A DNA stretch of 39,530 bases from an uncultured Pseudomonadota bacterium (GCA_937891875.1 CALATR010000217.1:1-39530), one strand, 5' to 3'; counted from the stretch's first letter, positions 113 through 39,278 are shown. Notes: generated by a model not told the origin, from the sequence alone. Program-made: numbers and translations.

Positions 113-2050
<1,938 letters not shown>

Positions 2051-2179
2051 GGAGGACCTCGGGGTGGGGTTGGCTTGCGCCGAAGACCCTCCCACGACAA
2101 TTCCTTACAACTCAATGACGGGCATACCTGACGTGCGAGCGAAATTTTTCGGATACCTGGACAGTACGTTGACAACGCA

Positions 2180-4911: not shown

Positions 4912-4996
4912 CCTTCCTCCCTCGTCCATCCGTACGTTCGATCGACGCGCGGTTCCCCCCGTCTGACAAGACGTTACGCGGCGGCCTGGAGATTTC

Positions 4997-5767: not shown

Positions 5768-6678
5768 GCGGCCAGCGGTCGGACGACGCCGACGACATCG
5801 TTCGCGACGCGGTCGAACGCTTCGCCGGCGACCACCGGGTGCTGTTCGAGGCCTTCGCCGAGGCGGAGCACGTGGCCCTCAACCGGGCCAGCTGGAACCA
5901 GGCGCCCCTGAACCACAACAGCCACAAGGGCGACCAGGCCGAGGCCCTGCGCCGGGGCGAGGATCCGCTCTTCCCCGAGGAGCTGGAGCTGCTCGGCGAT
6001 CTCGACGGCGTCTCGGTCGCCCACCTGCAGTGCAACGCCGGCCAGGACAGCCTGGGACTGGCCCTGCGCGGAGCGGCGGTCACGGGCATCGACCTGTCGG
6101 ACACCGCCATCGAGTTCGCCCGGGAGCTGTCCGGAAAGACGGGGATCCCCGCCACCTTCGTGCGGGATGAGATCCTGTCCTGGACCCACGCCACGGACGA
6201 GCGCTTCGACGTCGCCTTCGCCAGCTACGGGGTGCTGGGCTGGAACCGGGACCTCGGAGCGTGGATGCGCGGGGCCCACCGGGTGCTCAAGCCAGGCGGG
6301 CGCCTCGTAATCATGGAGTTCCATCCCGTGGTCTGGTCGCTCGGACAGACGCTCGCGCTCACCGGCGACGACTACTTCGCGCCCGGGCCGTTCGCGGAGC
6401 CGGTCAGCGACTACGTGGCTGAGACGCTCGACCGGGACCCCCTGCCCAACGAGCACGTGGCCCACGGATTCCAGCACTCGCTGGCCGAGATCGTGCAGGC
6501 GGTGGTGGACGCGGGGCTGCAGCTGCGAACCCTGCGCGAGTACCCGCACAGCAACTACGCGCGCCTGTCTCCGGGCCTGGTCGCCGGTCCGGACCGGACC
6601 TGGGTCTTTCCGCAGGGGAAGGCGAGAATCCCCTTGATGTTCGGCCTCGTGGCGGATCGTCCGACGAACGAGGCGTGA
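5764..6678 (+). CDS. Class I SAM-dependent methyltransferase
   Basis: C-terminal part of track ORF 4498..6678. The ATG at 5764 overlaps the xthA stop (ATGA). Motif I-like VAHLQCNAGQDSLGLALRGAAVTGIDLS and post-I/II FDVAFASYGVL...LKPGGRLVIMEFHP. Confidence 0.8.
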   Translation: MSGQRSDDADDIVRDAVERFAGDHRVLFEAFAEAEHVALNRASWNQAPLNHNSHKGDQAEALRRGEDPLFPEELELLGDLDGVSVAHLQCNAGQDSLGLALRGAAVTGIDLSDTAIEFARELSGKTGIPATFVRDEILSWTHATDERFDVAFASYGVLGWNRDLGAWMRGAHRVLKPGGRLVIMEFHPVVWSLGQTLALTGDDYFAPGPFAEPVSDYVAETLDRDPLPNEHVAHGFQHSLAEIVQAVVDAGLQLRTLREYPHSNYARLSPGLVAGPDRTWVFPQGKARIPLMFGLVADRPTNEA

Positions 6679-8147: not shown

Positions 8148-10607
8148 GTGCGCTTGCTGTCCCTCATCGCGCTCTCCATGGCCGTGCAGGCCTGTGGAGG
8201 CGGCGAGTGTCTGGACGTGCCCACCGCGCCCGCCCACGTGGTGTTCGAAGACGCCACGATCGGGGAGCGCGCGCTGCAGGTGCTGCGCCTCGAGAACACC
8301 TGCGAGGCCGAGCTGGCGGTGTCCTCGTCCGAGCTCATCGGCGACGCCCGCTTCGAGCTCAACGACGACGCCGCCGCCATCCCCGGCCTGGGTGACGCGC
8401 CCTTCGCGGTGGCGTTCACGGCCGATGGCTACGGTACTCACGTCGCCGAGCTCGCCGTCACGACTGCGAACGGCACCACCACCGTCGTGGTGTCCGGCAC
8501 CGCCGATCCCGACCAGGACGGGGACGGCGTCGATGCCTACCTGGCCGGCGGCACCGACTGCGACGACACCGATCCGGACGTGGTCGAGGCCCGCGAGGAG
8601 GAGGTCAACGGCCGGGACGACGACTGCGACGGACTCGTGGACGAGGACTTCATCCGCGCCGGCGACATCGTCATCACCGAGGTCATGATCTCGCCGGTCG
8701 CAGCCACCGGTCAGGCCGGCCAGTGGGTCGAGGTGCGCAATGCCGGCAGCCGCCGGGTGGATCTGTCGGGCTGGACCCTCTCCGGACCCAGCGGCCGCTA
8801 CACGGTCGAGCCGGGGCTGCAGCTGTCGGGCGGCGAGTACGCCGTGCTCGGCTTCGAGGCCGACACCAGCCTCAACGGCGGCGTCGAGCTGGACGGGCTG
8901 CTCACCGGTGGCGAGACCGCGCTGCCCACCCAGGGCTGGTTCTTGAGCCTCGCGGTCGAGGGGCGCGCGATCAACGTGCTGTCCGACAAGAAGTGGCCCC
9001 AGGAGAACGGCCACTCGGTGAACCTCGACGCCGAGGTGCTGGACCCCGCCGTCGCGACCCGCGCCGAGAGCTGGTGCGTGGCCAGCACCGTGATGCCCAA
9101 CGGCGACTTCGGCACGCCGGGGGCCCGGAACGACCTGTGCCCGCAGTTCGACCACGACGGCGACGGGCTGTCGGTGCTCGACGGCGACTGTGACGACACC
9201 GACGCGGACGTGAACCCCATCGCCTTCGACGTGTGGGACGGGGTCGACAACAACTGCGACGAGGTCGTGGACCTGGTGGTCGGCGCGGGCGCGGCCCAGG
9301 GGATCATCCAGGGCAGCGGCATCCGGCTGGGCAGTCACGTCCGGGGCACGTCGGACAGCCTGCTCATCGTCGGCACCGCGAACAACTCGACGGCGCTGTA
9401 CGTCGTGCCCTTCGGCAACGCGATCGGCGACGGCATCCAGCCGATCGGTGACGTGCTCTCCGGCTGGTACGAGGAGTCGGGCACCGCGAGGGTGGGGGCC
9501 ATCACCTCCTCCGCACCGCTGCACGACGTCGATGGGGACGGCGACGACGACGTGGTCGTGCTCGGTCGGCCGGCGAACTTCTACCAGGAGACCACCTCCT
9601 ACGACTACCTGTGGGTCTACGACGGGCTCCCCGCGGACACGATGACCGCCAGCGGCAACGACGACGCCTTCCTGGTCGTGCGCGACCCGCTGGACGGCAA
9701 CGGCTCCGACGGGGTCGAGGCCCTGCTGGACCTGGATCTGGACGGCGATGGCACCGCGGACAGCGTGTTCGGCCACGGCTCGTACAAGGGCACCGTGGAG
9801 GGCTTCGATCGCGTGAACAAGGGCCGGGTGTGGGTGCTGGACCTGGCGGGTGCGAGCGGGCGCGTCGACCCCGGCGACCTGATGGTGGCGTCGTGGACCG
9901 GGGAGAACGACTTCACCGGCCTCGGCGACTCGCTGTCCGGCGGTGACGTCGATGATGATGGCTACGACGACATCATCGTCATGGACGTCGACCCGTTTGC
10001 CGCGATGGAGACCGACCGTCGGGTGCAGATCCTGTCCGGCAGCGCGGACTACGCGGCGGACACCACGGTGGAGGCGGCGAGCTCGCTGATGATCACCGGG
10101 CTCGCCCAGCGCAACAGCCAGAACGACCAGGACGTGCAGGCCCCCCTGCTCGCCGATCTCGACGCCGACGGCGACATGGATCTCGCGATCCCTGATCCCT
10201 ACGCCTCCAGCGTGCGGATCTTCCACGACGCGAAGAACCTCTCGGGCGAGGTCGCCGCGGCGGACGCGGATCTCGTGCTCACCGGCACCGGCGGGTTCGG
10301 CACCCACCTCGTGCTCGGCGATCCGGCGGGGGACGGCACCCTGCACCTGCTGGTCGGCGCACCCACCAACGACTTCCGCGACTCGAGCGGGCGGGCCTGG
10401 CTCTTCCCCCAGAGCGCGCTGGGCGGCACCGGAACGGTCGACACGACTGCGGCCACTGCGGCCTTCGGCGACGACAGCAGCGCCTCCTTCGGCGCCTACA
10501 TGGCGCTGATCGACGTGACCGGCGACGGGCGTGACGACGTGGTCGCGCCGGACATCGGCCTGTTCGGCTTCAGCGGCGGCGTCTACCTCTTCGTCGCGCC
10601 GGAGTAG
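8148..10607 (+). CDS. Large lipoprotein with MopE-like Cys-rich metal-binding motifs, a lamin-tail domain (LTD) and FG-GAP/VCBS-type repeats
   Basis: Lipobox LSMAVQAC. DCDDTDPDV...NGRDDDCDGLVDED and DCDDTDADVNP...DNNCDEVVD. LTD-like ITEVMISPVAATGQAGQWVEVRNAGSRRVDLSGWTL. Repeated DVDGDGDDDVVV / DLDADGDMDLA / DVTGDGRDDVVAPD. GGGGAGG precedes the GTG start. Confidence 0.8.
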   Translation: MRLLSLIALSMAVQACGGGECLDVPTAPAHVVFEDATIGERALQVLRLENTCEAELAVSSSELIGDARFELNDDAAAIPGLGDAPFAVAFTADGYGTHVAELAVTTANGTTTVVVSGTADPDQDGDGVDAYLAGGTDCDDTDPDVVEAREEEVNGRDDDCDGLVDEDFIRAGDIVITEVMISPVAATGQAGQWVEVRNAGSRRVDLSGWTLSGPSGRYTVEPGLQLSGGEYAVLGFEADTSLNGGVELDGLLTGGETALPTQGWFLSLAVEGRAINVLSDKKWPQENGHSVNLDAEVLDPAVATRAESWCVASTVMPNGDFGTPGARNDLCPQFDHDGDGLSVLDGDCDDTDADVNPIAFDVWDGVDNNCDEVVDLVVGAGAAQGIIQGSGIRLGSHVRGTSDSLLIVGTANNSTALYVVPFGNAIGDGIQPIGDVLSGWYEESGTARVGAITSSAPLHDVDGDGDDDVVVLGRPANFYQETTSYDYLWVYDGLPADTMTASGNDDAFLVVRDPLDGNGSDGVEALLDLDLDGDGTADSVFGHGSYKGTVEGFDRVNKGRVWVLDLAGASGRVDPGDLMVASWTGENDFTGLGDSLSGGDVDDDGYDDIIVMDVDPFAAMETDRRVQILSGSADYAADTTVEAASSLMITGLAQRNSQNDQDVQAPLLADLDADGDMDLAIPDPYASSVRIFHDAKNLSGEVAAADADLVLTGTGGFGTHLVLGDPAGDGTLHLLVGAPTNDFRDSSGRAWLFPQSALGGTGTVDTTAATAAFGDDSSASFGAYMALIDVTGDGRDDVVAPDIGLFGFSGGVYLFVAPE

Positions 10608-24807: not shown

Positions 24808-27800
24808 ATGCTGATCCCGTCCGTTGCCCAGCCGATCCCCGATGGCTGGGTGACCGTGGACGGGAGCGTCTACCGCGCCCTCATCGCCGAGGACGAGCCC
24901 GAGGTGGACCCTCGTCAGACCCTGGTCGTCTCCGATCGCGACGTGCGCCTGCGCTGGGACGGCAAGGCGCTTCAGATCCGCTCCGTGTGGCGGCTCGTGC
25001 CCAAGGAACGCACCTGGCTCGACCTGCCGATCGCTGGTCCCCAGGTGCGGGTCGATCGGGTCCTGCTGGGTGGCGTGCTGGCCAAGCTCCGCGTGGAAGG
25101 CGGCTATACGCGCATCACGGCCCAGATCGACCGGCCGGTGGAGCTGGTGCTCGAGGGGGCCGTCGAGGGCGATCCGACCCGCGGCCCCCTGTCGATCCCG
25201 CTCGCCGGAGCGGTGCGGGGACAGGTCGAGATCGCCGTGCCCCAGGGCCTCGAAGGCCGCTTGATCGGCTCCACGGCGGGCGTGCCCGTGCGCGGCACCT
25301 GGCTCACCACCTCCGACCAGCTGTCCCTGCAGGTCGGACCTCCCCAGCGCAAGGCCCGGGACCGGAGCACCCTGGCGGTCGCGAGCGTCGGCATGGGCCT
25401 GACCGTGGGCGACGGCGCCGTGGACGGACGGGCCCAGGTGCGCTGGGCCCTGCGCCAGGGCCGGATGGAGCAGGTCGTGCTCCGCGTCGACGGCGTCGGA
25501 AACGACCTCGAGGTGACCGGCGGCAACGTCGGCCGCGTGGAGCGGCAGGGCAGCCGCGTGGTCGTCACCCTGCGCGAGCCGTCGGAGACCGTGGTCGATC
25601 TGGAGGTGCGCTGGAGCGTGCCCGTGCCCACCGGCGAGAGCGGCCAGGTCGCGGTGCCGCGCATCACCCCTGAAGGCGCCTTCCGCACCGAGGCCTCGCT
25701 CCAGCTCGCCCGCGACGGCACCCTGGAAGTGCTGCCCGAGGTCCCCGGCTGGCAGGCGATCTCCGCGTCGGAGCTCCCCGACTGGGGTGACGATCTGGTC
25801 GCTGGAACGCCGACTGCGGCCTACCGCTCCGCCACCGCGGGCAAGGGCGGCACCCTGGGACTGCTCCGCTTCGTCCCGGCGAGCGGACCGGCGGTCGTGG
25901 TCGACGTCGCCAGCCTCACCATCGCCACCAGCTACGAGGGCCGGACCCTGACCCGGGCCCTCTACACCGTGCGCAACGAGCGCGGTGCCCACCTCGCCGT
26001 GACCCCGCCCGCGGGCTCCACCATCGTCGGTGTGCGCGTCAACGACGGCCCAGTCACCCCGGTCGCCGACGGAGGGCGCTGGCTGGTGCCGCTCCCGCGG
26101 TCGCTCGAGACCGTCGACGGGCTGGTCTCCTTCCCGGTCGAGGTGGTGCTCCTGGGCGACGGCACCCCCTGGATCCGCAAGGAAGGGCGGGAGATCCCGA
26201 TGCCGGTGGTGGACGCGCCGATCGCGGTGAACCGGGTCACCCTGCACCTGCCGCCCACCTACGAGAACGACCTGGACGAGGGCGCCGCCGGCCAGGTCGA
26301 CGAGTTCACCGAGGGCGAGGGCATCGCGTATGGCTTCGGCCTGGGCGACGAGGACGAGGCCCAGGCGGACCAGCTCTGGCAGGACGCCCAGGCGGCGTGG
26401 ATGCGCAACGACTTCGACGAGGCGGACGAGCTGCTCGACGAGCTCGAGGTCATGGGCGCGAGCAACGAGAACCTCGGAAAGCTCCGCTCGAACCTGGATG
26501 TCGTACAGGGGCGTGACGCGACCAAGGCGAAGACCATCCAGGCCCGCCGGGTCCGCGAGCAGGCGAAGAGCCGGGGGCTCGAGGACTACCGCAAGCAGGA
26601 GGAGCTGCTGCGCCAGGCCGAGGAGGAGCTGTCGTCGGGTCAGTACGGCAGCGCCCAGGCCACCTATGAAGAGGTGGCGGAGCTGGCGCAGAAGCTCGAC
26701 AAGCTCGAGCAGGAGGAGTCCTTCGAGCAGAAGGCCACGGTCGACCTCGCCATGCGCAACTCCTCCGCGGCGTCCCAGGGGCAGGTCCGCATGGCCGAGC
26801 TGTCCGGCAAGGACGAGAAGAAGAAGGCGGTCGAGAAGAAGGAGCGCGACCGGGTGCTGGACCGGCTGGCCGAGCAGGCGGATCGGTCCGGCTGGGTCAC
26901 GACGGCGGCGGACTCGGGCAACGTGGCCGACGGCAACGGGATCGTGACCGAGGCGGCCAACGGTCGGCTCGATGGTGACCCGTCCTTCATCCCAGTCGAG
27001 GGTCAGAAGGGCGAGATCACCGAGATCGCCGACGAGATCGAGGCGGAGATCGAGGCCGAGCGCAGGCTCACCAAGGAGTTCCTGGAGCGAGTCCCGTCGG
27101 GTCGGTCCTACCAGGGGGCCCTGGGCGGCGTGGCCGGGGGCGTGGTCGGCGGGGAGGTCGGCGGTGCGGACGGGCTCGCCGGACTCGGCACCACGGGAGT
27201 CGGTCGGGGCGGCGGCGGGAGTGCGGAGACCGTCACCATCTCCAAGGACGAGATCCAGCACATGCCGGAGCCCAGCCCGGACGTCGTCGAGGAGGCGTCG
27301 GTCGACTTCGCCACGAGTCGGCGGACGATCAAGACCCTGCAGCGCCGCAGCGGGCCCCGCGGGGTCGACCTCGGCGGAATCGGCACCGGACGCCGCAAGA
27401 AGCCCAAGGCCCCCAAGGGGTCCGGCGCTCGGGACATGGACCAGGGCAGCTACGACGTCGACATCGCCGACGAGGAAGAGCCCGTGATCCAGTTCGGACG
27501 GGACATGCCGCTCGACGATGACGGCGAGCTCTCCGAGATCGTCGTCGACGCGCCCCCCGCGGCTCCCACGACCGGCTCCTTCTCCTCGGCCGACATGGAC
27601 TTCGAGGACGCCCCCATCGAGGGCAACCTCGCCACCCCCGACGCGTACAAGCTGGAGGCACTGGAAGTGACCTCCACCCGCATGTCGGTCGTCATTCCCG
27701 TCCAGGGAGAGACCCTTCGCTACGAGCACCTCCTCCTGCCCGCTGGCGCCGAGCACGCGGTGCGGATCGAGGCCCGCTCCACCCATCGAGACATCCCAAG

Positions 27801-27813
27801 GAGGCTTCCGTGA
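24808..27813 (+). CDS. Large protein of unknown family (P1): beta-rich N-terminal ~470 aa, then an acidic/coiled-coil and Gly-rich region and a conserved C-terminal module
   Basis: 1001-aa ORF, collinear with the downstream P2 in its N-terminal half and at the extreme C-terminus. The start is uncertain (see findings). Confidence 0.7.
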   Translation: MLIPSVAQPIPDGWVTVDGSVYRALIAEDEPEVDPRQTLVVSDRDVRLRWDGKALQIRSVWRLVPKERTWLDLPIAGPQVRVDRVLLGGVLAKLRVEGGYTRITAQIDRPVELVLEGAVEGDPTRGPLSIPLAGAVRGQVEIAVPQGLEGRLIGSTAGVPVRGTWLTTSDQLSLQVGPPQRKARDRSTLAVASVGMGLTVGDGAVDGRAQVRWALRQGRMEQVVLRVDGVGNDLEVTGGNVGRVERQGSRVVVTLREPSETVVDLEVRWSVPVPTGESGQVAVPRITPEGAFRTEASLQLARDGTLEVLPEVPGWQAISASELPDWGDDLVAGTPTAAYRSATAGKGGTLGLLRFVPASGPAVVVDVASLTIATSYEGRTLTRALYTVRNERGAHLAVTPPAGSTIVGVRVNDGPVTPVADGGRWLVPLPRSLETVDGLVSFPVEVVLLGDGTPWIRKEGREIPMPVVDAPIAVNRVTLHLPPTYENDLDEGAAGQVDEFTEGEGIAYGFGLGDEDEAQADQLWQDAQAAWMRNDFDEADELLDELEVMGASNENLGKLRSNLDVVQGRDATKAKTIQARRVREQAKSRGLEDYRKQEELLRQAEEELSSGQYGSAQATYEEVAELAQKLDKLEQEESFEQKATVDLAMRNSSAASQGQVRMAELSGKDEKKKAVEKKERDRVLDRLAEQADRSGWVTTAADSGNVADGNGIVTEAANGRLDGDPSFIPVEGQKGEITEIADEIEAEIEAERRLTKEFLERVPSGRSYQGALGGVAGGVVGGEVGGADGLAGLGTTGVGRGGGGSAETVTISKDEIQHMPEPSPDVVEEASVDFATSRRTIKTLQRRSGPRGVDLGGIGTGRRKKPKAPKGSGARDMDQGSYDVDIADEEEPVIQFGRDMPLDDDGELSEIVVDAPPAAPTTGSFSSADMDFEDAPIEGNLATPDAYKLEALEVTSTRMSVVIPVQGETLRYEHLLLPAGAEHAVRIEARSTHRDIPRRLP

Positions 27814-29675
27814 AGCTGCATGTGCCCATGATCCTCACGGTGGCACTCGCCGCCGGCGCGCTCGCTCCGATGGCCCACGCGGCCGAGGCCGAGCAGGTGA
27901 CCCTGTCCCTGCGCGAGTTCCTGCAGCTCTACGAGAAGAGCCGCGACCGCAAGAAGGACCCCGAGCAGGCGCCCCGCGACTTCTCCCTGTCGTCGGCGAA
28001 CTACGTCGGTGAGGTCATCGTCGACGAGGGCGAGCCCACGTCCGCGGTGTTCACCGCCCGCATGCAGGTCCAGGTCCACAAGTCCGAGGGCTGGATCAAG
28101 GTCCCGCTGCTCTCCCGCACGGTCGCCCTGCAGAACGCGACCGTGAACGGGCGTCCGGCGCCGGTGGTGCTCGAGGGCGGCACCTACACCCTGGTCACCG
28201 ACCAGAAGGGCAGCCTGGACGTCCGCCTGGAGTTCGCGACCAACGTCAACAACTCGCTGGGTACCTCCAGCTTCGCCTTCGACCTGGTGCCGTCCGGCGC
28301 GACCGAGGTGGAGCTGACCGTTCCGGTCGACGACGACCTCGACTTCGCCATCGCCAACGCTCGCCGGGTCTCGGAGAAGAAGGAGCGCGGCCGCCGCATC
28401 GTCACCGCCACCCTGCCGCCCCAGGGCTCGCTGAACGTGCGCTGGCAGCGCGAGGTGCCCACCGTCGCCGACGACGGCACCGAGGTGAAGAAGGACGAGG
28501 CGAAGATCTACAGCGAGGTCTACACGCTCGCGTCGGTCGGCGACGGCCTGCTCCGCGCCCAGGCGACCGTGGACAACACGATCCTGTTCGCCGGCGTCGA
28601 CAGCTTCGAGCTGAAGATCCCCGACGGCATGACCCTGCTCGACGTGAAGGGCGCCGGTCTGCGCGACTGGGCGCTGGGCGAGGACAACACGCTCAAGGTC
28701 GAGCTCAACTACGCCGCCGAGAACCGCTACAGCCTGACGCTGGACATGGAGAAGGTCATCGGCGAGGGCAGCACCAGCGTGGACGCCCCGCTGGTCACCC
28801 CGCTGGGCGTCGAGCGGAGCAAGGGCTGGGTCGGCGTCGAGGCGCGTGGCAACCTGGAGATCGGCGCCGGCGACGTGGTCGGCGCGACCGCGGTCGACGT
28901 GCGCACCCTGCCCGGCCAGATCCTCGGGCGGACCAGCCAGCCGGTGCTGCTCGGCTACAAGTACCTCGTGACCAACGCCAAGGTCCCGCTGGTCATCAGC
29001 GCCCACGATGACGTGGACGTCCTGGTCACCCTGCTCGACCAGGCCGAGGCCACGACGATGTTCACCCCGGACGGTCGGCGCCTCACGAGCGTCAAGTACG
29101 AGGTGCGGAACAACCGTCGGCAGTTCCTCCGGTTGAAGCTCCCGGATGGTGCAGAGCTGTGGTCGGCGGCGGTCGCCGGTCGCGCGGTGCAGCCGGCCAC
29201 GTCGAGCGGGGCCATCCTGGTGCCGCTGATCCGGTCGCAGAGCCAGGGCGGCGGTCTGGCGAGCTTCGCGGTCGAGGTCGTCTACGTCGAGTCTGGCGAG
29301 CCCACCGCCGACAATGGCAAGGGCCGCTTCCAGGCGGTGCTGCCCAAGCCCGACGTGCCCACCACCTACGTCGGCTGGACGGTCTACGCGCCGGACGAGG
29401 CCAAGGTGAAGGCGGACAAGGCCGAGGGCACCCTGCGCTACGTGCCGCGGCTCTCCCGCCCGCTCGGCGCGGTGGCGGCCCTCGAGGTGCAGGCCCAGGC
29501 GCCCCAGCAGCAGCGCTCGGCGAACATCCAGGCCGACGCCGGCGCGCTCGGCGATGGGGCGGCCCCGGTCCGGGTCCGGCTCCCGCTGGAGGGCACGCCG
29601 TACTTCTTCGAGAAGCTGCTCGCGCTGGACGAGGACCTCGAGGTGGCCTTCGACTACAAGGGCCTCAAGGACTGA
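27810..29675 (+). CDS. Secreted protein of unknown family (P2), paralogous in architecture to P1
   Basis: AAGGAGG 5 nt before the GTG, which overlaps the P1 stop (GTGA). Signal peptide MKLHVPMILTVALAAGALAPMAHA. Shared block YEVRNNRRQFLRLKLPDGAEL...ILVPLIRS...SFAVEVVYVE. Confidence 0.75.
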   Translation: MKLHVPMILTVALAAGALAPMAHAAEAEQVTLSLREFLQLYEKSRDRKKDPEQAPRDFSLSSANYVGEVIVDEGEPTSAVFTARMQVQVHKSEGWIKVPLLSRTVALQNATVNGRPAPVVLEGGTYTLVTDQKGSLDVRLEFATNVNNSLGTSSFAFDLVPSGATEVELTVPVDDDLDFAIANARRVSEKKERGRRIVTATLPPQGSLNVRWQREVPTVADDGTEVKKDEAKIYSEVYTLASVGDGLLRAQATVDNTILFAGVDSFELKIPDGMTLLDVKGAGLRDWALGEDNTLKVELNYAAENRYSLTLDMEKVIGEGSTSVDAPLVTPLGVERSKGWVGVEARGNLEIGAGDVVGATAVDVRTLPGQILGRTSQPVLLGYKYLVTNAKVPLVISAHDDVDVLVTLLDQAEATTMFTPDGRRLTSVKYEVRNNRRQFLRLKLPDGAELWSAAVAGRAVQPATSSGAILVPLIRSQSQGGGLASFAVEVVYVESGEPTADNGKGRFQAVLPKPDVPTTYVGWTVYAPDEAKVKADKAEGTLRYVPRLSRPLGAVAALEVQAQAPQQQRSANIQADAGALGDGAAPVRVRLPLEGTPYFFEKLLALDEDLEVAFDYKGLKD

Positions 29676-30858
29676 TCGGCTCCGGGTAGAGGAGCGCGGT
29701 CACTTCGGCGAGTGCGTCGTCGGCAGCGCGGTGGTCGCTGCCGGCTTGAGCGCAGGGGCCGAGGCCGGGTTCGATCGGGTAGGGCAGGGGATCGCCGTAG
29801 CGATTGGCGCGGTAGAGCGCGCCGCCACGGCCGGAGAAGTGCACGTCGTCGGCGGGGTCCAGGTAGGGGTCCAGCAGGCGGCGGGCATCGTCGAGTTCAT
29901 CGGTTTGGAGGCTGAACACGATGTCCTGCGCCTGAGGCCAGAGCCGCGACTCCCAGCGGACGCCAAGCTGCTGGTCTCCTGGCCAGGGCTTGCCTTGCTG
30001 CTCCCGCGCGTGGCGGAGCCCGATCGCCACGGTAGCGAGCGCCTCGAGCGGCTTGTTCGAGGCGCGCATCCTGCCGGTCAGCGCCGCGTAGCTGAGGACG
30101 GCGGGCTCGCCGCGTGGCCCGTGTTGGCGGGGGTCGCACGCGCGGGCGTCCGGGGACCTGAACGGCGAGGATGGCCGGGCGTCGTCGAGGGAGGACAGGA
30201 TCCGCTGGCGCGCCACTTCCGCGCGGTACTGGTTGTAGCCGGCCTGGGCGGCGTCCAGCAGGCCGACGGGCGTGTCGACGTGGGGGGCATAGCCGGAGTC
30301 GCGGTGTCGTCGGTAGAGCTCGCCGCGCGCGCCGGTCGGGTACAGCTCGACCCCGGGGTGGCGGAGGTCCCCCAGCGCCCCACGCACGTCGTCGACCTCG
30401 TCCAGGCCCATGTCTTCCAGGGTGTCGGCGGCGAGCTCGAGGTAGGCCTGCTCGTAGATGGAGCCGAGCACGCGGAGCTTGCCGGCAGGGTCCCGCTCCA
30501 GGGCGCGAGCGGCGTGCGCTCCGTCGAACGCGGCGAGCACGGCACCGGCGCGGGCCCCGTGGTCGACGAGCTGCTCGACGACCCGCTGGTGTGCCACCAT
30601 CGCCCGGGGTGCGGCGGGATCGCCACCGAGGGTCGTGCAGCGGAGCGCCCCCCGAACGCCGTCGATGACGGCCTGGTTGTAGCCTTCGCCGAGGAGCGCG
30701 CGGTCGTGTTCGGCGACCTTGCCCAGCTCCGGTGCGAAGGCACAGTCCCGGGCCTCCAGGCCGTGCGGGGGCACCAGGCGGACGCGATCGTGGATCTCGG
30801 GGTCAGGGCCGCCGCAGGCGGAGAGCGCGGCGACGAGGGCGATGGAGGACACGCGCAT
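29665..30858 (-). CDS. Lipoprotein of unknown function (paralog of 30861..31568)
   Basis: Lipobox VAALSACGG. Shares ALRC(T/S)(T/S)LG and LYRRHRDSG(Y/F) with the upstream gene. Its 3' end overlaps the P2 3' end by 11 nt (convergent). Confidence 0.65.
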   Translation of the reverse strand: MRVSSIALVAALSACGGPDPEIHDRVRLVPPHGLEARDCAFAPELGKVAEHDRALLGEGYNQAVIDGVRGALRCTTLGGDPAAPRAMVAHQRVVEQLVDHGARAGAVLAAFDGAHAARALERDPAGKLRVLGSIYEQAYLELAADTLEDMGLDEVDDVRGALGDLRHPGVELYPTGARGELYRRHRDSGYAPHVDTPVGLLDAAQAGYNQYRAEVARQRILSSLDDARPSSPFRSPDARACDPRQHGPRGEPAVLSYAALTGRMRASNKPLEALATVAIGLRHAREQQGKPWPGDQQLGVRWESRLWPQAQDIVFSLQTDELDDARRLLDPYLDPADDVHFSGRGGALYRANRYGDPLPYPIEPGLGPCAQAGSDHRAADDALAEVTALLYPEPISP

Positions 30859-30860
30859 GA

Positions 30861-31568
30861 TCAGTTCCCGTTGGCAGCGGTGGGTTCATCGCGGGCGAGC
30901 TCCGCCAGGATCTGCAGCCGCGCCTGATCGGCGCGGAACTGGTGCTCGCCGGCGAAGGCGTAGATCTTCAGCGCCTCGGGGATCCGGGGGCTGGGGAGGA
31001 AGCCGGAGTCGCGGTGGCGCCGATACAGGCCGGTCTCATCGCCGCTGAAGTCGAGGTCGTAGCCGCGCGTTCGAAGGGACTGGGCGACGGTCCGAATGGC
31101 CTCACGGCGGGGCTCCGGCACCTTCGGGAGGAGCCTTGCCGCCCGCTCCAGGTTCAAGCGCTCCCATGCCACCGCGATGACGCGGACCACTTCCGGGTCG
31201 GCCGCCGCGTGAGGACGGGCGACGAGCGCACCGTCGATGGCCGTGAGCACGGCGTCCTCGTACCTGCCGTCGTTCTCGTAGCGCGCGGCCAGGTCGAACA
31301 TCTGCCCGGCGACGTCCCACCCGGTCCCGTCGCCGAGCGAGGAGCAACGCAGCGCCTCGTTCACGACCGCGCGGGCCGCGTCGCACTGCGCCTCCGTCGC
31401 GCTGTCGGGATCGAAGCCGTCGAGGGCGTCCAGCTCCGCACTCATGCGGCAGGAGCGCCCGGCCAGATGCTCGGGCACACGCAGGCTCGCGTCGTCGGGA
31501 TCGGGGCTGCAGCCGGCCAGGGCGAGCAGGAACACGGGAACAAGGCGTACAAGTCGGACCACGAGCAC
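30861..31568 (-). CDS. Lipoprotein of unknown function (paralog of 29665..30858)
   Basis: Lipobox LLALAGCSP. Motifs EALRCSSLGDG and GLYRRHRDSGF. Only 2 nt separate its stop from the next start. Confidence 0.65.
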   Translation of the reverse strand: MLVVRLVRLVPVFLLALAGCSPDPDDASLRVPEHLAGRSCRMSAELDALDGFDPDSATEAQCDAARAVVNEALRCSSLGDGTGWDVAGQMFDLAARYENDGRYEDAVLTAIDGALVARPHAAADPEVVRVIAVAWERLNLERAARLLPKVPEPRREAIRTVAQSLRTRGYDLDFSGDETGLYRRHRDSGFLPSPRIPEALKIYAFAGEHQFRADQARLQILAELARDEPTAANGN

Positions 31569-34533: not shown

Positions 34534-36120
34534 CTACCTGCAGGTCCCGGCGTCCACGTACTCGACCTCGACCTTGGCGCCGTCCGGGAAGTCCGGCTGG
34601 AGCGACAGCGTCCGCCCCAGCTCGCCGCCGAGGATCCACGACTCGGTCGCGATGCCGCTCACCGACACCCGCACCGACTCCGGCACCGGCTTGGCCAGCA
34701 GCTGGTGACTCCAGGTCTCCCGCCGCATGTCGGCCGTGTTCAGGGCCAGGCTGGCCCAGTGGCCGTCCCAGCTGGAGGCGCACAGGTCCAGGGTCTGGCC
34801 CTCGGTGCTGGTCGCCGCCTCGTCCAGGCGTGACGTGGTCGGTCCGCAGCCCGACCGCGGCGTGATGGTCGAGATGTGCACCTCGACGCCCTCGCTGCGC
34901 ATCTGGCTGACCCAGGTGCCCGGCGTCCGCCCGGACACGTCGTCCCGGGCGGAGATGACCACGACGTGCACCGGGTCCGAGCCCGAGAGCCAGCCTCCAA
35001 AGCACGAGTTGCGCCCGCGGCTCACGGAGTCGGCGGTCAGGGCCAGGGGCTTGCGCGCCCACTCGGTCCCCGGGTCGAACAGCGTGTCGACGAGCTGGTC
35101 GGCCTCGGCCATGTCGGCCGGCGGCGCGGCAAACGTGTAGGGGCAGACCGACTCGGTGGACGCGGCCGCCACCCGGTAGTCGACGCCCTCGGTGGCGAGG
35201 CTCTCGAGCAGGTTGCCGACCCCGGCGCGGATCTTCGCCCGGTGGCCGGCCACGTCGGACGCTTCGTCGTCGTGTACCAGCAGCATGTGTGCGCCGCTGC
35301 CGTCCGAGGTCTGCCAGGTCTCCACCGCGTGGTCGTTCACCCGGCCCTCGCCCAGGAGCAGCACGCTGACCGGCTCCGGCAAGCCGGTGCTGATCGACAG
35401 GGTGCAGCTGTGCCGCCCCGCCCAACGCGGCTGGAAGTCTACGGGCAACCGGGCGAAGTCGCTCGCGGCGATCGGTGCGGACTTCAGGGCCTGCACCGCG
35501 TCGTCCTGGAGGCGGAACCCCTCGCACCCGGGCTCCGCGCCCAGGGTGACATCGTAGACGGGCATCTCGTCGGGGCCGGCGTTCTCGATGAGCACGCTGG
35601 CTTCGTTCGTGCAGTACGCCCTGGTCGCCTCGACGATCTCGGTCGACAGCGTGGGGGTCGGGCCCGATGCGTCGGCGACCACCCGCACCGTCAGGTCGCG
35701 CTCGGCGGAGTCGGTCAGGGGGATGCTGGCCTCGAAGTGTCCGCCGTGGGGGGGATCGAAGGTCACGGGCAGGGTCCGGGTCTCGCCGGCGGGTACGACC
35801 ATGAAGAGCAGGTCGGGAGGCAGGCGGAACGCGTCTCGCCGGTCGCCGGACTGCGCGTTCTCCAGGCGCAGGTCCCGAACGATCATGTCCTCATCGGTGT
35901 TGTTGATGAGCTGGATGACCTTGTCGACCGGGGTCTCGCTGGCCGCGATGTCGAACACCAGGGTCGTGGGCGTGACCTGCACCCCGCCCTCGACCGAGTC
36001 CGTGTCCAGCGGTCCGACCACGAACGGGTTGTCCGTGTCGGCGATGAACGGGCGCAGCTCGTCGCAGCCGGCGGCGAGCCACGGCAGCAGCAACAGGGTG
36101 ACGGCAAGGGGTCGATTCAC
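34534..36120 (-). CDS. Large lipoprotein with Ig/PapD-like beta-sandwich domains and a degenerate vWA-like domain
   Basis: Lipobox WLAAGC. VQVTPTTLVFDIAASETPVDKVIQLINNTDEDMIVRDLRL (ASH/PapD-like). HMLLVHDDEASDVAGHRAKIRAGVGNLLESLATEGVDYRVAAASTE resembles the vWA-like lipoprotein domain common in myxobacteria. GTG start. Confidence 0.7.
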   Translation of the reverse strand: MNRPLAVTLLLLPWLAAGCDELRPFIADTDNPFVVGPLDTDSVEGGVQVTPTTLVFDIAASETPVDKVIQLINNTDEDMIVRDLRLENAQSGDRRDAFRLPPDLLFMVVPAGETRTLPVTFDPPHGGHFEASIPLTDSAERDLTVRVVADASGPTPTLSTEIVEATRAYCTNEASVLIENAGPDEMPVYDVTLGAEPGCEGFRLQDDAVQALKSAPIAASDFARLPVDFQPRWAGRHSCTLSISTGLPEPVSVLLLGEGRVNDHAVETWQTSDGSGAHMLLVHDDEASDVAGHRAKIRAGVGNLLESLATEGVDYRVAAASTESVCPYTFAAPPADMAEADQLVDTLFDPGTEWARKPLALTADSVSRGRNSCFGGWLSGSDPVHVVVISARDDVSGRTPGTWVSQMRSEGVEVHISTITPRSGCGPTTSRLDEAATSTEGQTLDLCASSWDGHWASLALNTADMRRETWSHQLLAKPVPESVRVSVSGIATESWILGGELGRTLSLQPDFPDGAKVEVEYVDAGTCR

Positions 36121-36205: not shown

Positions 36206-37888
36206 CTAGAACGCGACGCCGACCGACAGGCCCTGCGCCACGCCCAGCTGGGTCGGCGTGCCGGGGCCCATGAGGGGCACCGCCCGCACGTCGTAGCGGA
36301 GCTGGGCGGAGACGTCGCCCTTGCCGACCGGGAGCATCCACTCGGCGCGCAGGCCGGGCATCACCGTGTACCAGAGCTCCTTGCGCTCCTGGCACTGGAA
36401 GGCGTCGTCGACGCAGGTGCCCTGGCGGAACATCACGCCCGCCTCGAGCTCCGGGCCGATCAGCAGGTCATCGCGCAGCTGGTAGGCGACCGAGACACCG
36501 GCGCTGGGCATGACGCCAACGAGGTCGTACTGGTCGATGTCGCTCCAGCGAGCCGCGAGGTCCCGCGTGGTGGCGCCGTAGCTGGAACGCAGGTGGAAAC
36601 CGGGCTTCCACTCGCCTGCCCACTTGGGGCGCACGCCGAGCTCCAGCTCGCCGGCCCCGATGGGCAGCGACTCGGCGTTGAGCGTCGCGACCGCGCCGAC
36701 GTGCAGCGAGACCGTGGTCTCGAGTGGCTGCAGATCCTCGATCTGCAGGTGGTCGCCGGCCTTGAGGCGGACGTTCTCCGCATAGACCGTGCGCCCGTCG
36801 GTGGTCAGGATCTCGAGCCGGTGCTTGCCGGGCTCGATGGCCACGACGCTGGGCAGGCTGCCCCGCGCCTGACCGTCAACCAGCAGCCGGGCGGTGACGA
36901 GGATGTCGTCGTACCCGGAGATGAGCGCGCGCTCGGCACGCGTCCGCTGGCCAGGGTCCCCCGCCAGGTAGATCGCTTCCCGCCCGCTGACCCGGTACTC
37001 CGCCCGGGGCACCTGCAGGCCGCCAGTGTGGCGGACGGTGCGGTCCTGGGCGTAGTCGTGGGCCTCGGTCACATCGACCAGGCCGTTGCCGTCGAGGTCG
37101 GCGGTGCGGCGGTCGGAGCCGAGGGCCTCGAGCAGGTAGTGGGTGTACACGCCGTTCTGGAGGCTCTTGTCCTCCATCGCGGGCTGGTAGTACTGGGCGG
37201 CGTAGAGCCGGGCCTCGGACTCGGTCACTTCGGAGACCGGGTTGGGGGCGGGCGGCTCGCCGCGCAGGCTGGACAGGCGATCCCGGGTGGTGCTGTTCAC
37301 CACCGCGCGGCTGCCGTCGGCCCGGCCGTTGTGGCAGGTGTCCATGATCAGCACCCGGCGGCGGGGCACCAGCTCGGTGAGGGTCTCCTCGAGCCAGGCG
37401 ACCTCGAGACCGCGGTCCTCCGGCGTCGCCAGCTTGGCGTCGCTGGGCAGGAACCACAGGCGGGTGCCGTCGATCGGGTCGAGCGTCAGGGTGCCGTGGC
37501 CGGACAGGTAGAGCAGGAAGGTGTCGTCCCGCTGCAGGCCCGCGGTGATCTCCTTCAGCTTCTTCACGATGGCGTCGCGGCTGGTTGCGTCCTTGCCGGT
37601 CAGCACGTGCACTTCGTCGTAGTCGCCGGTGACCGGATCGCGCAGGGCGGCGGCCACGTCGCGGGCGTCCTTGCCAGCGAAGCGCAGGGTCTCGAGCTCG
37701 GGATCGGCGTAGGTGTCCACGCCGATGAGCAGGGCGACGCGCTTGGCGCCGTACACCTGATCGGCGCTGCCGGTGTCCTTGACGGTCACCGTGCCGGCGA
37801 GGGCGGGCACCGCGCACAGGGCGAGGCCCGCGACCAGTCCGGCAGCGAGGGTCTTGTGGGTTGCAAGCAGGGTCAACAGCGGCTTCAT
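36206..37888 (-). CDS. Caspase-fold (peptidase C14, orthocaspase-like) protein with a PEGA-like domain and a C-terminal beta-barrel-like region
   Basis: Track ORF 36206..38416 trimmed to ATG 37888, which overlaps the upstream stop (ATGA). Signal peptide MKPLLTLLATHKTLAAGLVAGLALCAVPALA. RVALLIGVDTY, catalytic His LYLSGHG and Cys LIMDTCHNG. DLDGNGLVDVTE. PEGA-like LLVDGQARGSLPSVVAIEPGKHRLEI. The protein ends ...GLSVGVAF. Confidence 0.85.
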   Translation of the reverse strand: MKPLLTLLATHKTLAAGLVAGLALCAVPALAGTVTVKDTGSADQVYGAKRVALLIGVDTYADPELETLRFAGKDARDVAAALRDPVTGDYDEVHVLTGKDATSRDAIVKKLKEITAGLQRDDTFLLYLSGHGTLTLDPIDGTRLWFLPSDAKLATPEDRGLEVAWLEETLTELVPRRRVLIMDTCHNGRADGSRAVVNSTTRDRLSSLRGEPPAPNPVSEVTESEARLYAAQYYQPAMEDKSLQNGVYTHYLLEALGSDRRTADLDGNGLVDVTEAHDYAQDRTVRHTGGLQVPRAEYRVSGREAIYLAGDPGQRTRAERALISGYDDILVTARLLVDGQARGSLPSVVAIEPGKHRLEILTTDGRTVYAENVRLKAGDHLQIEDLQPLETTVSLHVGAVATLNAESLPIGAGELELGVRPKWAGEWKPGFHLRSSYGATTRDLAARWSDIDQYDLVGVMPSAGVSVAYQLRDDLLIGPELEAGVMFRQGTCVDDAFQCQERKELWYTVMPGLRAEWMLPVGKGDVSAQLRYDVRAVPLMGPGTPTQLGVAQGLSVGVAF

Positions 37889-38643
37889 CGCACGGCCTCC
37901 ACCTGCTCTGCAGCGCAACGTCCGCCCAGCTCCCAGGCCGCCGCGCACACTGCCTCGGCCGTGGGCTCGACGGCGAGACCGTCGGCCACGTCGGTGGCGG
38001 TCAGCGGGGCATCGGTGCGGATGACGGCGAACACGGCGGACTCCTCTCCAGCTTCCAAGGCATACCCGACCAGATCGGCACCTGTCTTGAGATCCGCGGT
38101 GCCGGCCGTCACTTCCTGTGTGTGCAGGAGCTGGGCGCGGTCGCCGTCCACCCGGACGAGGGAGACGTGACCGTCGGCGTAGGCGTCGATCCGGAAGAGC
38201 AGGGTGTCCCCCGGCTCGTAGGTGCGACCGCGCTGGAAGCGGTCGGTGCCGGCGGTGGTCTGCACCGCCATGGACAGGTCTACCCCGGGGCCGACTCCGA
38301 CGTCCCCGCGGGGGGTGAAGTCCTCGGGGTTGCCGATGCCGTCGTCCGCGGGCACGACCATGAATGCGACCAGCACGGCGGCGGCGATGGCGACCAGCGG
38401 GCCAGCGACGATCCACCAGCGACCGGGCTTGTTGGCGGGCGCGGGCACGGGCTCCGGGGCAGCCTCGACACTCGGAAGTGCCGGGACATCCTCGATGGAC
38501 GGCGGATCCTGGGGCGTGCTCGCGATGAGCGCCAGGATGGAGGCGTCCAGGTCGGGCGGGTCCAGGGGTGGCAGCTCACCGAGCAGGCGGTCGAGCTCGT
38601 CCTCGGAGATCATCGGGCCGGTGCCGACAGTGTCGTCGCTCAT
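37885..38643 (-). CDS. Single-pass membrane protein in the anti-sigma position, with a DUF4384-like periplasmic domain
   Basis: Internal ATG 38643 of track ORF 37885..39258, overlapping the sigma stop (ATGA). TM helix WWIVAGPLVAIAAAVLVAFMVV. Periplasmic YEPGDTLLFRIDAYADGHVSLVRVDGDRAQLL. No HxxxCxxC zinc motif. Confidence 0.55.
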   Translation of the reverse strand: MSDDTVGTGPMISEDELDRLLGELPPLDPPDLDASILALIASTPQDPPSIEDVPALPSVEAAPEPVPAPANKPGRWWIVAGPLVAIAAAVLVAFMVVPADDGIGNPEDFTPRGDVGVGPGVDLSMAVQTTAGTDRFQRGRTYEPGDTLLFRIDAYADGHVSLVRVDGDRAQLLHTQEVTAGTADLKTGADLVGYALEAGEESAVFAVIRTDAPLTATDVADGLAVEPTAEAVCAAAWELGGRCAAEQVEAVR

Positions 38644-39224
38644 GACGCCACCCCCCGCTCGGCCAGGATCTCGCGGAGGCGGGCGCGGGCCCGGGACACC
38701 CGGCGGCGCGCATTGGCCGGGGTGATGTCCAGCGCTTCGGCGAGCTCGTTGTGGTCCAGGCCCTCGACCGCACCCAGCAGGAAGGCCTCCCGCAGGGTCT
38801 CGGGGAGCTCCTGGATGGCGCGCTCGAGGTCGACGCCGGAGAGCGGGTCGCCGCTGGCGCGGGTCGCGGTGCCCTCGGGCCGCCAGAAGGTCTCGCCGCC
38901 CAGCTGCTCGTCCAGCTCGATGGTGTCGATGCGGCGGCGCTCCTTGCGGAAGCGGTCCCGGGCGACATTGGCGGCGATGCGGAAGAGCCACGGCTTGACC
39001 GGCTGGCCTTCCTTGTAGGTGTGGGCGCTGCGCCACACGCGGAGGAACGCTTCCTGGTACAGCTCGGCAGACAGCTCCCGGTCGCCCGTCCGTCGCGCCA
39101 GCCACGACCACACCGGGCCGCGGTAGCGAGCGAACAGGGCGCCGAATGCGTCCTGGTTGCCGGCTTGCACCATGATCATCAGGTCCTCGTCGGACGGCGA
39201 GTCGATTGTGCGCCCTCCAGCCAC
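38640..39224 (-). CDS. ECF-type (group 4) sigma-70 family RNA polymerase sigma factor
   Basis: DEDLMIMVQAGNQDAFGALFARYRGPVWSWL (region 2.1), PWLFRIAANVARDRFRKERR (2.4), LPETLREAFLLGAVEGLDHNELAEALDITPANARRRVSRARARLREIL (region 4). GTG start with AGGGAG upstream. Confidence 0.9.
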   Translation of the reverse strand: MAGGRTIDSPSDEDLMIMVQAGNQDAFGALFARYRGPVWSWLARRTGDRELSAELYQEAFLRVWRSAHTYKEGQPVKPWLFRIAANVARDRFRKERRRIDTIELDEQLGGETFWRPEGTATRASGDPLSGVDLERAIQELPETLREAFLLGAVEGLDHNELAEALDITPANARRRVSRARARLREILAERGVAS

Positions 39225-39278
39225 CCCATACGCTCCCTGGGTCCGCCGTGTGACACACGGACCCGTGTCAATGACCTG

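Follow-up and report, generated by a model that had tools for sequence, protein, structure and literature searches.

A conserved exported caspase homologue with a predicted outer-membrane beta-barrel, encoded in an operon with an extracytoplasmic function sigma factor and its putative anti-sigma partner

What could a caspase-fold protease be doing in a bacterial envelope? The protein considered here is encoded in a 39,530-nucleotide stretch of DNA from an uncultured Pseudomonadota bacterium (GCA_937891875.1 CALATR010000217.1:1-39530), which was analysed as a whole and is referred to below as the window; its G+C content is ~71% along its whole length. Four head-to-tail genes on the minus strand encode, in this order, a sigma factor of the extracytoplasmic function (ECF) type, a single-pass anti-sigma-like protein, the protein that we call caspase-barrel, and a lipoprotein, and a convergent ABC transporter gene closes the unit. 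The caspase-barrel open reading frame (ORF) fills positions 36206 to 37888 (read from 37888 to 36206), and its product of 560 residues, followed by a stop codon, has the domain order signal peptide, Peptidase C14, EF-hand-type loop, PEGA domain and C-terminal eight-stranded barrel. Its features, with the evidence for each in parentheses, are as follows.

36206..37888, minus strand: caspase-barrel gene (ORF, Pfam, alignment of 49 relatives, AlphaFold)
37796..37888, minus strand: Sec-type signal peptide, residues 1-31, predicted cleavage ALA/G (sequence; invariant A31 and G32)
37004..37744, minus strand: Peptidase C14 domain (caspase/metacaspase fold), residues 49-295 (Pfam, alignment, Foldseek)
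37496-37498 and 37334-37336, minus strand: codons of the catalytic residues H131 and C185, with D183 two residues before the Cys
37259..37264, minus strand: R209-G210, candidate autoprocessing site in the p20-p10 linker (invariant in the alignment)
37064..37099, minus strand: EF-hand-type loop DLDGNGLVDVTE, residues 264-275, with flanking helices (alignment, model, PDB search)
36743..36892, minus strand: PEGA-type small beta-sandwich, residues 333-382 (AlphaFold, phmmer, Pfam of the matched proteins)
36209..36715, minus strand: eight-stranded outer-membrane-type beta-barrel, residues 392-560 (AlphaFold, Foldseek, alignment analysis)

Searching 5.8 billion proteins gave 248 relatives of caspase-barrel. 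The best 120 of these were examined for length, coverage and naming: nearly all are 520-565 residues long and span the entire query, public records call them nothing more than 'caspase family protein' or 'uncharacterized caspase-like protein', and their sole precomputed Pfam domain, bar a CHAT match in one protein, is PF00656. Forty-nine sequences of the family were aligned, and statements about conservation in caspase-barrel refer to this alignment, on which the AlphaFold2 model of the protein was also built (mean predicted local distance difference test score, pLDDT, 80). The N-terminus, MKPLLTLLATHKTLAAGLVAGLALCAVPALA/G, contains the basic residues K2 and K12, a hydrophobic core and an A-x-A site (A-L-A/G), and the residues on either side of the predicted cleavage site, A31 and G32, are invariant, in agreement with the Sec signal peptide recognised in the initial annotation. 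Anchoring as a lipoprotein through C25 (GLALC) was ruled out: the residue at −1 is Leu, the Cys is not conserved, and there is no lipobox.

The caspase-barrel protein is a C14 member by every computational test. PF00656 matches residues 49-295 with 46.8 bits against a cut-off of 21.4 and is found in all 49 relatives, while the nearest NCBIfam subfamily, caspase_w_EACC1, scores 95.7 bits, under its cut-off of 140. H131 (in LYLSGHG), C185 and D183 (both in IMDTCHNG) are all invariant, and in a profile alignment the two motifs pair with HYSGHGG of the yeast metacaspase Yca1 (4f6o) and DSCHSG of GSU0716 (3bij). The initial annotation had read an intact C14 domain with a His/Cys dyad in context; the Pfam score supports that reading, and H131 and C185 do align with the catalytic dyads of Yca1 and GSU0716. 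The caspase core is modelled confidently (pLDDT ~90), and in a Foldseek search of the PDB the N-terminal half matches MALT1 (E 2e-9) and Arabidopsis metacaspases 4 and 9.

Clan CD proteases with a D-x-C motif cleave after Arg or Lys. Because caspase-barrel contains D183-x-C185, as metacaspases and MALT1 do, it is predicted to prefer Arg or Lys at P1; the conserved acidic residues E239 and D240 accompany the motif. The p20-p10 linker (residues 187-233) is disordered in the model and includes the invariant R209-G210, after which the pLDDT of segment 211-233 falls below 50. R209-G210 is a plausible site of autoprocessing.

The likeness to the metacaspases, orthocaspases and MALT1 (MEROPS C14, clan CD) extends to the caspase/hemoglobinase fold, the His-Cys dyad in GHG and DxCH(S/N)G motifs, the Asp two residues ahead of the catalytic Cys, as in the Arg/Lys-specific members, and the disordered p20-p10 linker with a conserved Arg, and the closest structures to the domain are those of MALT1 and Arabidopsis MC4 and MC9. 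Characterised C14 members are cytoplasmic, whereas caspase-barrel is exported by its signal peptide; it has neither a type I prodomain nor death or Ig domains, and it adds an EF-hand-type loop, a PEGA domain and a membrane barrel. An anti-phage or abortive-infection caspase was considered and rejected: PADLOC returns no more than a generic caspase hit for the protein and none for the three neighbouring genes, and the presence of a signal peptide speaks against a cytoplasmic death effector. The gingipains of Porphyromonas (C25, clan CD) are likewise extracytoplasmic Arg- or Lys-specific caspase-fold proteases on the outer membrane; they differ from caspase-barrel in belonging to another family, in being secreted by the type IX system and attached to the outer face through anionic lipopolysaccharide (A-LPS), and in having neither a barrel nor a link to a sigma factor.

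Between the catalytic core and the barrel lie two smaller elements. The loop DLDGNGLVDVTE fits the 12-residue pattern DxDxNGxVDxxE, which is present in 48 of the 49 relatives; compared with the canonical DxDxDGxIDxxE, the pattern fits except at the position following the final Glu. The model places the loop in a helix-loop-helix, and Pfam EF-hand models match weakly in a few of the 49 relatives. What had been annotated as a Ca-binding-like loop therefore retains a conserved EF-hand pattern with flanking helices, but its top match among PDB sequences, an EF-hand protein, is not significant (E 0.87); Ca2+ binding at this loop is suggested by the pattern.

Following a segment that is flexible in the model (residues 296-330), residues 334-375 form a small four-stranded sandwich. 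Pfam PEGA (PF08308) makes no direct call on the caspase-barrel protein and matches one of the 49 relatives (E 0.0023). When residues 326-560 were searched with phmmer against 1.84 billion representatives, residues 333-382 matched multi-repeat proteins for which Pfam scores 11-15 PEGA repeats (E <= 1e-169). Since these matches run through residues 333-382, the homology of this segment to PEGA repeats is confirmed at the level of sequence, and the PEGA-like sandwich of the initial annotation can be kept, although the direct Pfam call fails. We propose that the catalytic domain is linked to the barrel through the PEGA domain and a flexible linker of ~40 residues.

The C-terminal half gave nothing in a single-sequence search of PDB sequences, and neither Pfam nor NCBIfam places an outer-membrane-protein family on it; its assignment consequently relies on structure prediction and phmmer. 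In the AlphaFold2 model, residues 392-559 form eight long strands of 12-19 residues with a pLDDT of ~90-98. Foldseek superposes this region on OmpX with a template-modelling (TM) score of 0.75 (root-mean-square deviation 3.8 A over 170 columns) and on Ail with a TM-score of 0.73; the further neighbours are the OmpA transmembrane domain, NspA, OprF-N, OpcA and OprG, and no soluble barrel occurs among the significant PDB matches. Averaged over the 49 sequences, hydrophobicity has a period of two in all eight strands, with alternate positions differing by 1.4-3.0 Kyte-Doolittle units. Aromatic-rich columns lie near the strand ends, and the conserved charged residues E414, E416, R488, R531 and D533 lie on the opposite barrel face, as in the interiors of OmpA and OmpX. 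By fold and sequence pattern, then, the barrel is of the OmpX/OmpA type, as the suggestion of alternating hydrophobic and polar strands over the final ~170 residues had anticipated, and it is predicted to insert in the outer membrane.

Could the region instead be a soluble barrel or sandwich, for example of the lipocalin kind, in a protease that is free in the periplasm or secreted? The silence of the Pfam and NCBIfam outer-membrane-protein families on this region and the lack of a conserved terminal aromatic would suit such a protein. Every significant structural neighbour, however, is an integral outer-membrane barrel, the strands are 12-19 residues long with alternating hydrophobics and aromatics near their ends, and the conserved charges fall on a single face; we consider a soluble domain very improbable.

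The sequence ..GLSVGVAF does end in an aromatic residue, as the initial annotation pointed out in proposing a classical beta-signal, but this is a property of the window protein and not of the family: Phe occurs within the last four residues of only ~22 of the 49 relatives. The family tail consensus is H-G-h-x-h-G-h-x-[F/T]-R, in which G557 is invariant, and Oligoflexia relatives end in ..WYW or ..WHW. With the small eight-stranded barrels (OmpX, Ail, the OmpA/OprF N-terminal domain and NspA) the domain shares eight antiparallel amphipathic strands, short periplasmic turns, long variable outer loops and charged interior residues, without any detectable sequence relationship. Unlike these proteins, it often has a beta-signal without the terminal aromatic, and it lies C-terminal to a large periplasmic enzyme, whereas the order is reversed in OmpA, and OmpX and Ail consist of the barrel only. 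A barrel that stands alone or is attached to other enzymes was also looked for, and the idea was dropped: in phmmer, all matches to the barrel part come from this caspase family, as members or as fragments, and every full-length match to PEGA plus barrel is a family member or a truncated fragment of one.

On which side of the outer membrane does the protease lie? Across the 49 sequences, connectors 2, 4 and 6 of the barrel are short and fixed (6-8, 1-4 and 3-6 residues), connectors 3, 5 and 7 are of variable length, with 4-21, 2-15 and 6-13 residues respectively, and connector 1 has 5 to 7 residues only. Because the number of strands is even, the even connectors are short and the odd ones variable, both ends of the barrel are expected to be periplasmic, and the caspase and PEGA domains would therefore be periplasmic too. 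An N-terminal periplasmic domain followed by an outer-membrane barrel is the usual layout of BamA, of LptD and of the FecA signalling domain. The outer-membrane tether proposed in the initial annotation, which left the side open between periplasm and surface, is supported by the barrel model, and the side is narrowed to the periplasm.

The alternative, that caspase and PEGA domains are displayed outside in the manner of an autotransporter and act on prey, competitors or matrix, draws on the domain order, which matches that of type Va autotransporters, on a weak match to the Pfam Autotransporter beta-domain in 2 of the 49 relatives (E 0.0032), on the frequency of PEGA domains, EF-hand loops and Ig-like 'choice-of-anchor D' lipoproteins among surface proteins, and on the many predatory or social bacteria among the carrier lineages. 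Against this, there are eight strands in ~170 residues and not 12 in ~270, no helical segment plugs the pore in the AlphaFold model, the nearest structures (OmpX, Ail and OmpA) have a filled lumen, the even strand number and connector pattern put the N-terminus on the short-turn side, and the domain of the partner anti-sigma protein is periplasmic. An eight-stranded barrel is too small for the export of a passenger domain, and surface display is improbable. As a class assignment, type Va autotransporter was rejected as well: that class has a 12-stranded barrel of ~250-300 residues and a helical linker, and caspase-barrel has eight strands, ~170 residues and no linker helix. All told, it is quite probable that C14, PEGA and an eight-stranded membrane barrel are joined in one protein with its protease domain in the periplasm.

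A pair of Cys residues (GTC-VDDAFQ-C, window 36413-36436, residues 492-499) lies in outer loop 3, the longest variable connector. Cys residues occur in this loop in only some of the closest relatives, and the pair may form a disulfide in a surface-exposed loop.

The remainder of the unit, all on the minus strand, and the elements discussed below are as follows.

38640..39224, minus strand: ECF sigma-70 family sigma factor, 194 residues from GTG 39224, start codon uncertain (Pfam, NCBIfam)
37885..38643, minus strand: single-pass anti-sigma-like membrane protein, 252 residues; the gene caller starts at M11, 38613 (sequence, AlphaFold)
38359..38415, minus strand: transmembrane helix WIVAGPLVAIAAAVLVAFM, anti-sigma residues 77-95 (AlphaFold model)
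38305..38310, minus strand: R112-G113, candidate cleavage site, context DFTPR/GD (alignment, AlphaFold)
37894..38283, minus strand: periplasmic Ig-like beta-sandwich with a conserved C-terminal Cys pair, C233 and C243 (alignment, model)
39229..39254, minus strand: ECF-type promoter GTCACAC-N16-CGTA, immediately 5' of the sigma gene (sole match in the window)
34534..36120, minus strand: co-transcribed lipoprotein, 528 residues, lipobox LAAGC (85 nt downstream of the caspase gene)

The genes are tightly packed: the anti-sigma start overlaps the sigma stop, and the anti-sigma stop overlaps the caspase start, in each case as ATGA. The sigma factor contains Pfam Sigma70_r2 and Sigma70_r4_2, and with NCBIfam TIGR02937 (sigma70-ECF, cut-off 42.9) it reaches 84.9 bits. 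ECF regions 2 and 4 are therefore present with a co-transcribed single-pass partner, whose identity as an anti-sigma protein is predicted. The lipoprotein gives weak matches to Ig-like and choice-of-anchor D families in Pfam and NCBIfam, has a Cys-rich C-terminal domain, and finds no match among PDB sequences. Its N-terminus (LAAGC-DE, window 36052-36066) has Asp at +2 after the lipidated Cys, a residue that signals inner-membrane retention in E. coli; myxobacterial sorting rules differ.

How widely is this arrangement conserved? A scan of one genome per species yielded 79 loci, and gene order was counted by tblastn on 81 loci. The order sigma, anti-sigma, caspase-barrel is found at ~60 of the 81, in metagenome-assembled genomes (MAGs) of Myxococcota and Oligoflexia; where the sigma gene is absent, this is mostly at cut contigs or in one group of paralogues. 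A lipoprotein homologue follows the caspase gene directly at ~45 of the 81 loci. Even in distant subfamilies, including those of Oligoflexus and Pseudobacteriovorax (29-32% identity), the sigma and anti-sigma genes still lie upstream, and the protein retains the caspase, the PEGA domain and a beta-rich C-terminus. Altogether, caspase-barrel is conserved in ~80 genomes at species level, from aquatic, uncultured Myxococcota and Oligoflexia. The exception to the sigma linkage is a paralogous caspase-PEGA-barrel subfamily (loci L073, L074, L076, L077 and L078), which shares ~41% identity with the window protein and retains the dyad intact, but lacks the sigma and anti-sigma genes. One example spans positions 4911-6455 and 6482-8194 of L074; in L074 and L076 the paralogue is followed by a lipoprotein of ~570 residues, and such paralogues share MAGs with the sigma-linked copy, as in CAZFLE01, which has both L019 and L074.

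The promoter is conserved along with the gene order. All 56 unique upstream regions of the sigma gene have GTCACA-N16-CGTA, and the coding strand has one copy per locus, in every case immediately 5' of that gene; the only two extra matches across the loci are on the other strand. The motif resembles the experimentally defined ECF41 promoter TGTCACA-N16-CGTC (PMC3426412). Neither a sigma-70-type promoter nor an intrinsic terminator was found inside the four-gene unit. Because a conserved ECF-type promoter precedes the sigma gene and no internal promoter or terminator interrupts the unit, the operon is, judged by its sequence, very probably autoregulated. In the window the −10 element (CGTA) ends 5 nt before the sigma GTG at 39224, so the sigma mRNA is leaderless or nearly so, or else translation starts at a later codon, such as the ATG of residue 16; at other loci, 27-48 nt separate the motif's end from the codon aligned with sigma residue 11.

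If the caspase is kept beside a sigma/anti-sigma pair, is the anti-sigma protein its substrate? An AlphaFold model of the anti-sigma protein built on a 21-sequence alignment (mean pLDDT 82) comprises short cytoplasmic helices, a transmembrane helix (residues 77-95), a linker modelled with low confidence (96-120) and an Ig-like sandwich (121-250, pLDDT >=96). The sandwich resembles only generic Ig-like folds among PDB structures (E 0.02 or worse), and the NCBIfam 'antisigma' model matches the protein weakly, below its cut-off (E 2e-4). The sole recurrent Pfam signal of the domain is DUF4384, with weak sub-threshold matches in two sets of relatives (5 of 21 and 2 of 8). DUF4384 is often fused to C14 domains.

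Some anti-sigma relatives have an N-terminal zinc-finger motif of the H-x3-C-x2-C type: the relative at locus L066 gives a weak zf-HC2 match, and the one at L028 has an N-terminus that is likewise rich in Cys. In the window protein and many others this motif has been lost, and the cytoplasmic part is much shorter.

Within the linker, R112-G113 lies 17 residues after the transmembrane helix and 8 before the folded domain, at a pLDDT of 57-67, and both residues are invariant in the anti-sigma alignment. The surrounding motif is [LM]-[VT]-[AP]-[RK]-G, in which the basic position is Arg in 38 of 44 sequences drawn from the related loci and Lys in the other 6, and the Gly is present in all 44. At the equivalent spot the distant subfamilies have VLTRGG, TRFRGG, TRLRGG, PRSRGV, LAARGA, TYKSG or TAKSGG, that is, [RK]-[GSA]. 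The form [LM]-V-[AP]-R/G resembles the optimal MALT1 substrates LVSR and LVPR (PMC6207715). We suggest that the protease cleaves the anti-sigma protein at [RK]-G.

We propose that the operon encodes an autoregulated envelope-signalling module, starting from what has been computed, namely the architecture, the barrel fold, the aligned dyad, how the operon is conserved, its promoter motif, and where [RK]-G lies and how well it is conserved. After Sec export, the machinery that assembles beta-barrels (BAM) would insert the C-terminal barrel, and the catalytic domain would hang into the periplasm. An envelope or surface cue would lead the Arg/Lys-specific protease to cut the anti-sigma protein at [RK]-G in its periplasmic linker, with two candidate activating steps, the binding of Ca2+ by the EF-hand loop and the autoprocessing of R209-G210; in a broader form of the proposal, the input could be sensed through the variable outer loops of the barrel or through the state of the outer membrane. 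This cut would take the site-1 role, and the short stub left behind would be a substrate for RseP-type intramembrane proteolysis. The freed sigma factor would then transcribe the operon from its GTCACA-N16-CGTA promoter, and so amplify it. We put the probability that such a module is, as a whole, the best explanation at about 0.45. That the outer-membrane caspase makes the first (site-1) cut in the co-encoded anti-sigma protein is a possibility to which we give somewhat less than even odds. More tentative still is the idea of a new class of trans-envelope signalling, in which an outer-membrane caspase is a dedicated site-1 protease that recognises an LV[AP]R/G site and acts, like MALT1, by limited proteolysis.

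Several points weigh against this proposal. The first is geometry: the site lies ~17 residues from the inner membrane and the protease is on the outer membrane, so that the linker and PEGA domain would need to reach through the peptidoglycan layer and across most of the periplasm. Second, a thiol protease must remain reduced in the oxidising periplasm. Third, a conserved [RK]-G before a folded domain could be structural and not a cleavage site. Fourth, co-transcription of the caspase with the sigma factor fits an output of the regulon equally well, and the paralogues without sigma and anti-sigma genes imply that the protease has at least one other substrate or role. Outer-membrane localisation is weakened by the inconstant terminal aromatic and by the result that no existing outer-membrane-protein hidden Markov model reaches threshold on the barrel. 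Finally, all 79 scanned loci come from MAGs, mostly labelled Myxococcota or 'Deltaproteobacteria', that is, from uncultured sources.

The main rival shares the architecture and location and reverses the direction of control, caspase-barrel being an output of the sigma factor and not its activator. The anti-sigma protein would sense the cue by its own Ig-like domain and be cut by DegS, Prc or RseP-type housekeeping proteases, and the induced caspase-barrel and lipoprotein may process or degrade envelope proteins, mature the lipoprotein, or remodel a stressed envelope. That one sigma-dependent promoter appears to drive all four genes is typical of ECF regulons and suits this role, as do the paralogous pairs of caspase-barrel and lipoprotein that exist apart from sigma and anti-sigma genes; the tether in the outer membrane, far from a site near the inner membrane, argues against direct cleavage. 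A mere output, however, does not readily account for the triad of sigma, anti-sigma and caspase being kept even where the downstream lipoprotein is missing (Oligoflexus L079), for a basic-Gly linker motif that matches the expected P1 preference and is conserved over deep divergence, or for DUF4384, of all Pfam families, being the one to recur below threshold on the anti-sigma domain. We regard the output role as somewhat less likely than the activator role.

Elements of the proposed signalling module have precedents. In the Myxococcus xanthus anti-sigma protein DdvA, a periplasmic caspase-fold CHAT domain is proposed by its authors to cut the protein itself before RseP acts (PMC11506125). The DdvA/DdvS system and the caspase-barrel operon thus have in common a periplasmic caspase-fold His-Cys module that is linked, in a myxobacterium, to a pair of ECF sigma and anti-sigma, and a proposed proteolytic first step ahead of RseP. 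In DdvA, however, TPR-CHAT is fused to the anti-sigma protein and would act on itself, in trans within a dimer, whereas caspase-barrel is a separate C14 protein anchored in the other membrane; likewise, the DdvS regulon is a CBASS/CRISPR defence island, whereas the known target of the caspase-barrel operon is the operon itself only. Operons that combine sigma factors and metacaspases were noted in myxobacteria in 2012, without a mechanism (PMC3501461).

Cell-surface signalling of the FecA/FecR/FecI type offers a second comparison, with its outer-membrane barrel carrying an N-terminal periplasmic domain, its single-pass anti-sigma protein and its autoregulated ECF sigma factor; activation there proceeds by sequential proteolysis of the anti-sigma protein (PMC10392083, PMC11637429). 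The likeness is in layout only. The FecIRA type has a 22-stranded TonB-dependent transducer with a periplasmic signalling domain, whereas the caspase operon has an eight-stranded barrel with a periplasmic protease domain, and where the FecIRA type with Prc and RseP uses a housekeeping site-1 protease, the caspase operon would encode its own. In the literature searched, neither a fusion of C14 to a barrel is described nor a caspase that is encoded alongside an anti-sigma protein as a separate outer-membrane protein, and public names go no further than 'caspase family protein'; the impression in the initial annotation that this domain combination is undescribed therefore holds for that literature.

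Little is known of what bacterial caspase homologues do physiologically and which substrates they cut, and this family makes the question testable by offering a place in the cell (on the outer membrane, periplasmic side), a candidate bond for cleavage (R112-G113 in the anti-sigma protein) and a promoter as read-out. The operon context, which the initial annotation overlooked, says most about caspase-barrel function. If the proposal is correct, a protease that sits in the opposite membrane could trigger regulated proteolysis of an anti-sigma protein, and a bacterial caspase would be used in signal-transducing limited proteolysis and not in cell death, in parallel with the paracaspase. Even without this mechanism, an enzyme placed N-terminal to an OmpX-sized barrel is an unusual outer-membrane architecture that annotation has missed.

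With regard to the database records, the titles of loci L015, L027, L040, L045 and L053 and of many 'Enterobacterales' loci name unlikely organisms (Klebsiella pneumoniae, Bifidobacterium breve, Cognaticolwellia, Enterobacterales), which look like placeholder or erroneous taxonomy labels. Elsewhere in the window, four ORFs have coding-type composition and no Pfam match at E <=1e-4: 24808-27813 (plus strand, 1001 residues), 27810-29675 (plus strand, 621 residues), 29665-30858 (minus strand, 397 residues) and 30861-31568 (minus strand, 235 residues). The 621-residue product has a signal-peptide-like N-terminus, and the 397- and 235-residue products have lipobox-like N-termini. Finally, positions 113-2095 (minus strand) encode a secreted thermolysin-type M4 metallopeptidase with an FTP propeptide, and positions 8148-10607 (plus strand) encode a secreted lipoprotein-like protein of 819 residues with MopE-type metal-binding, lamin-tail and FG-GAP motifs.

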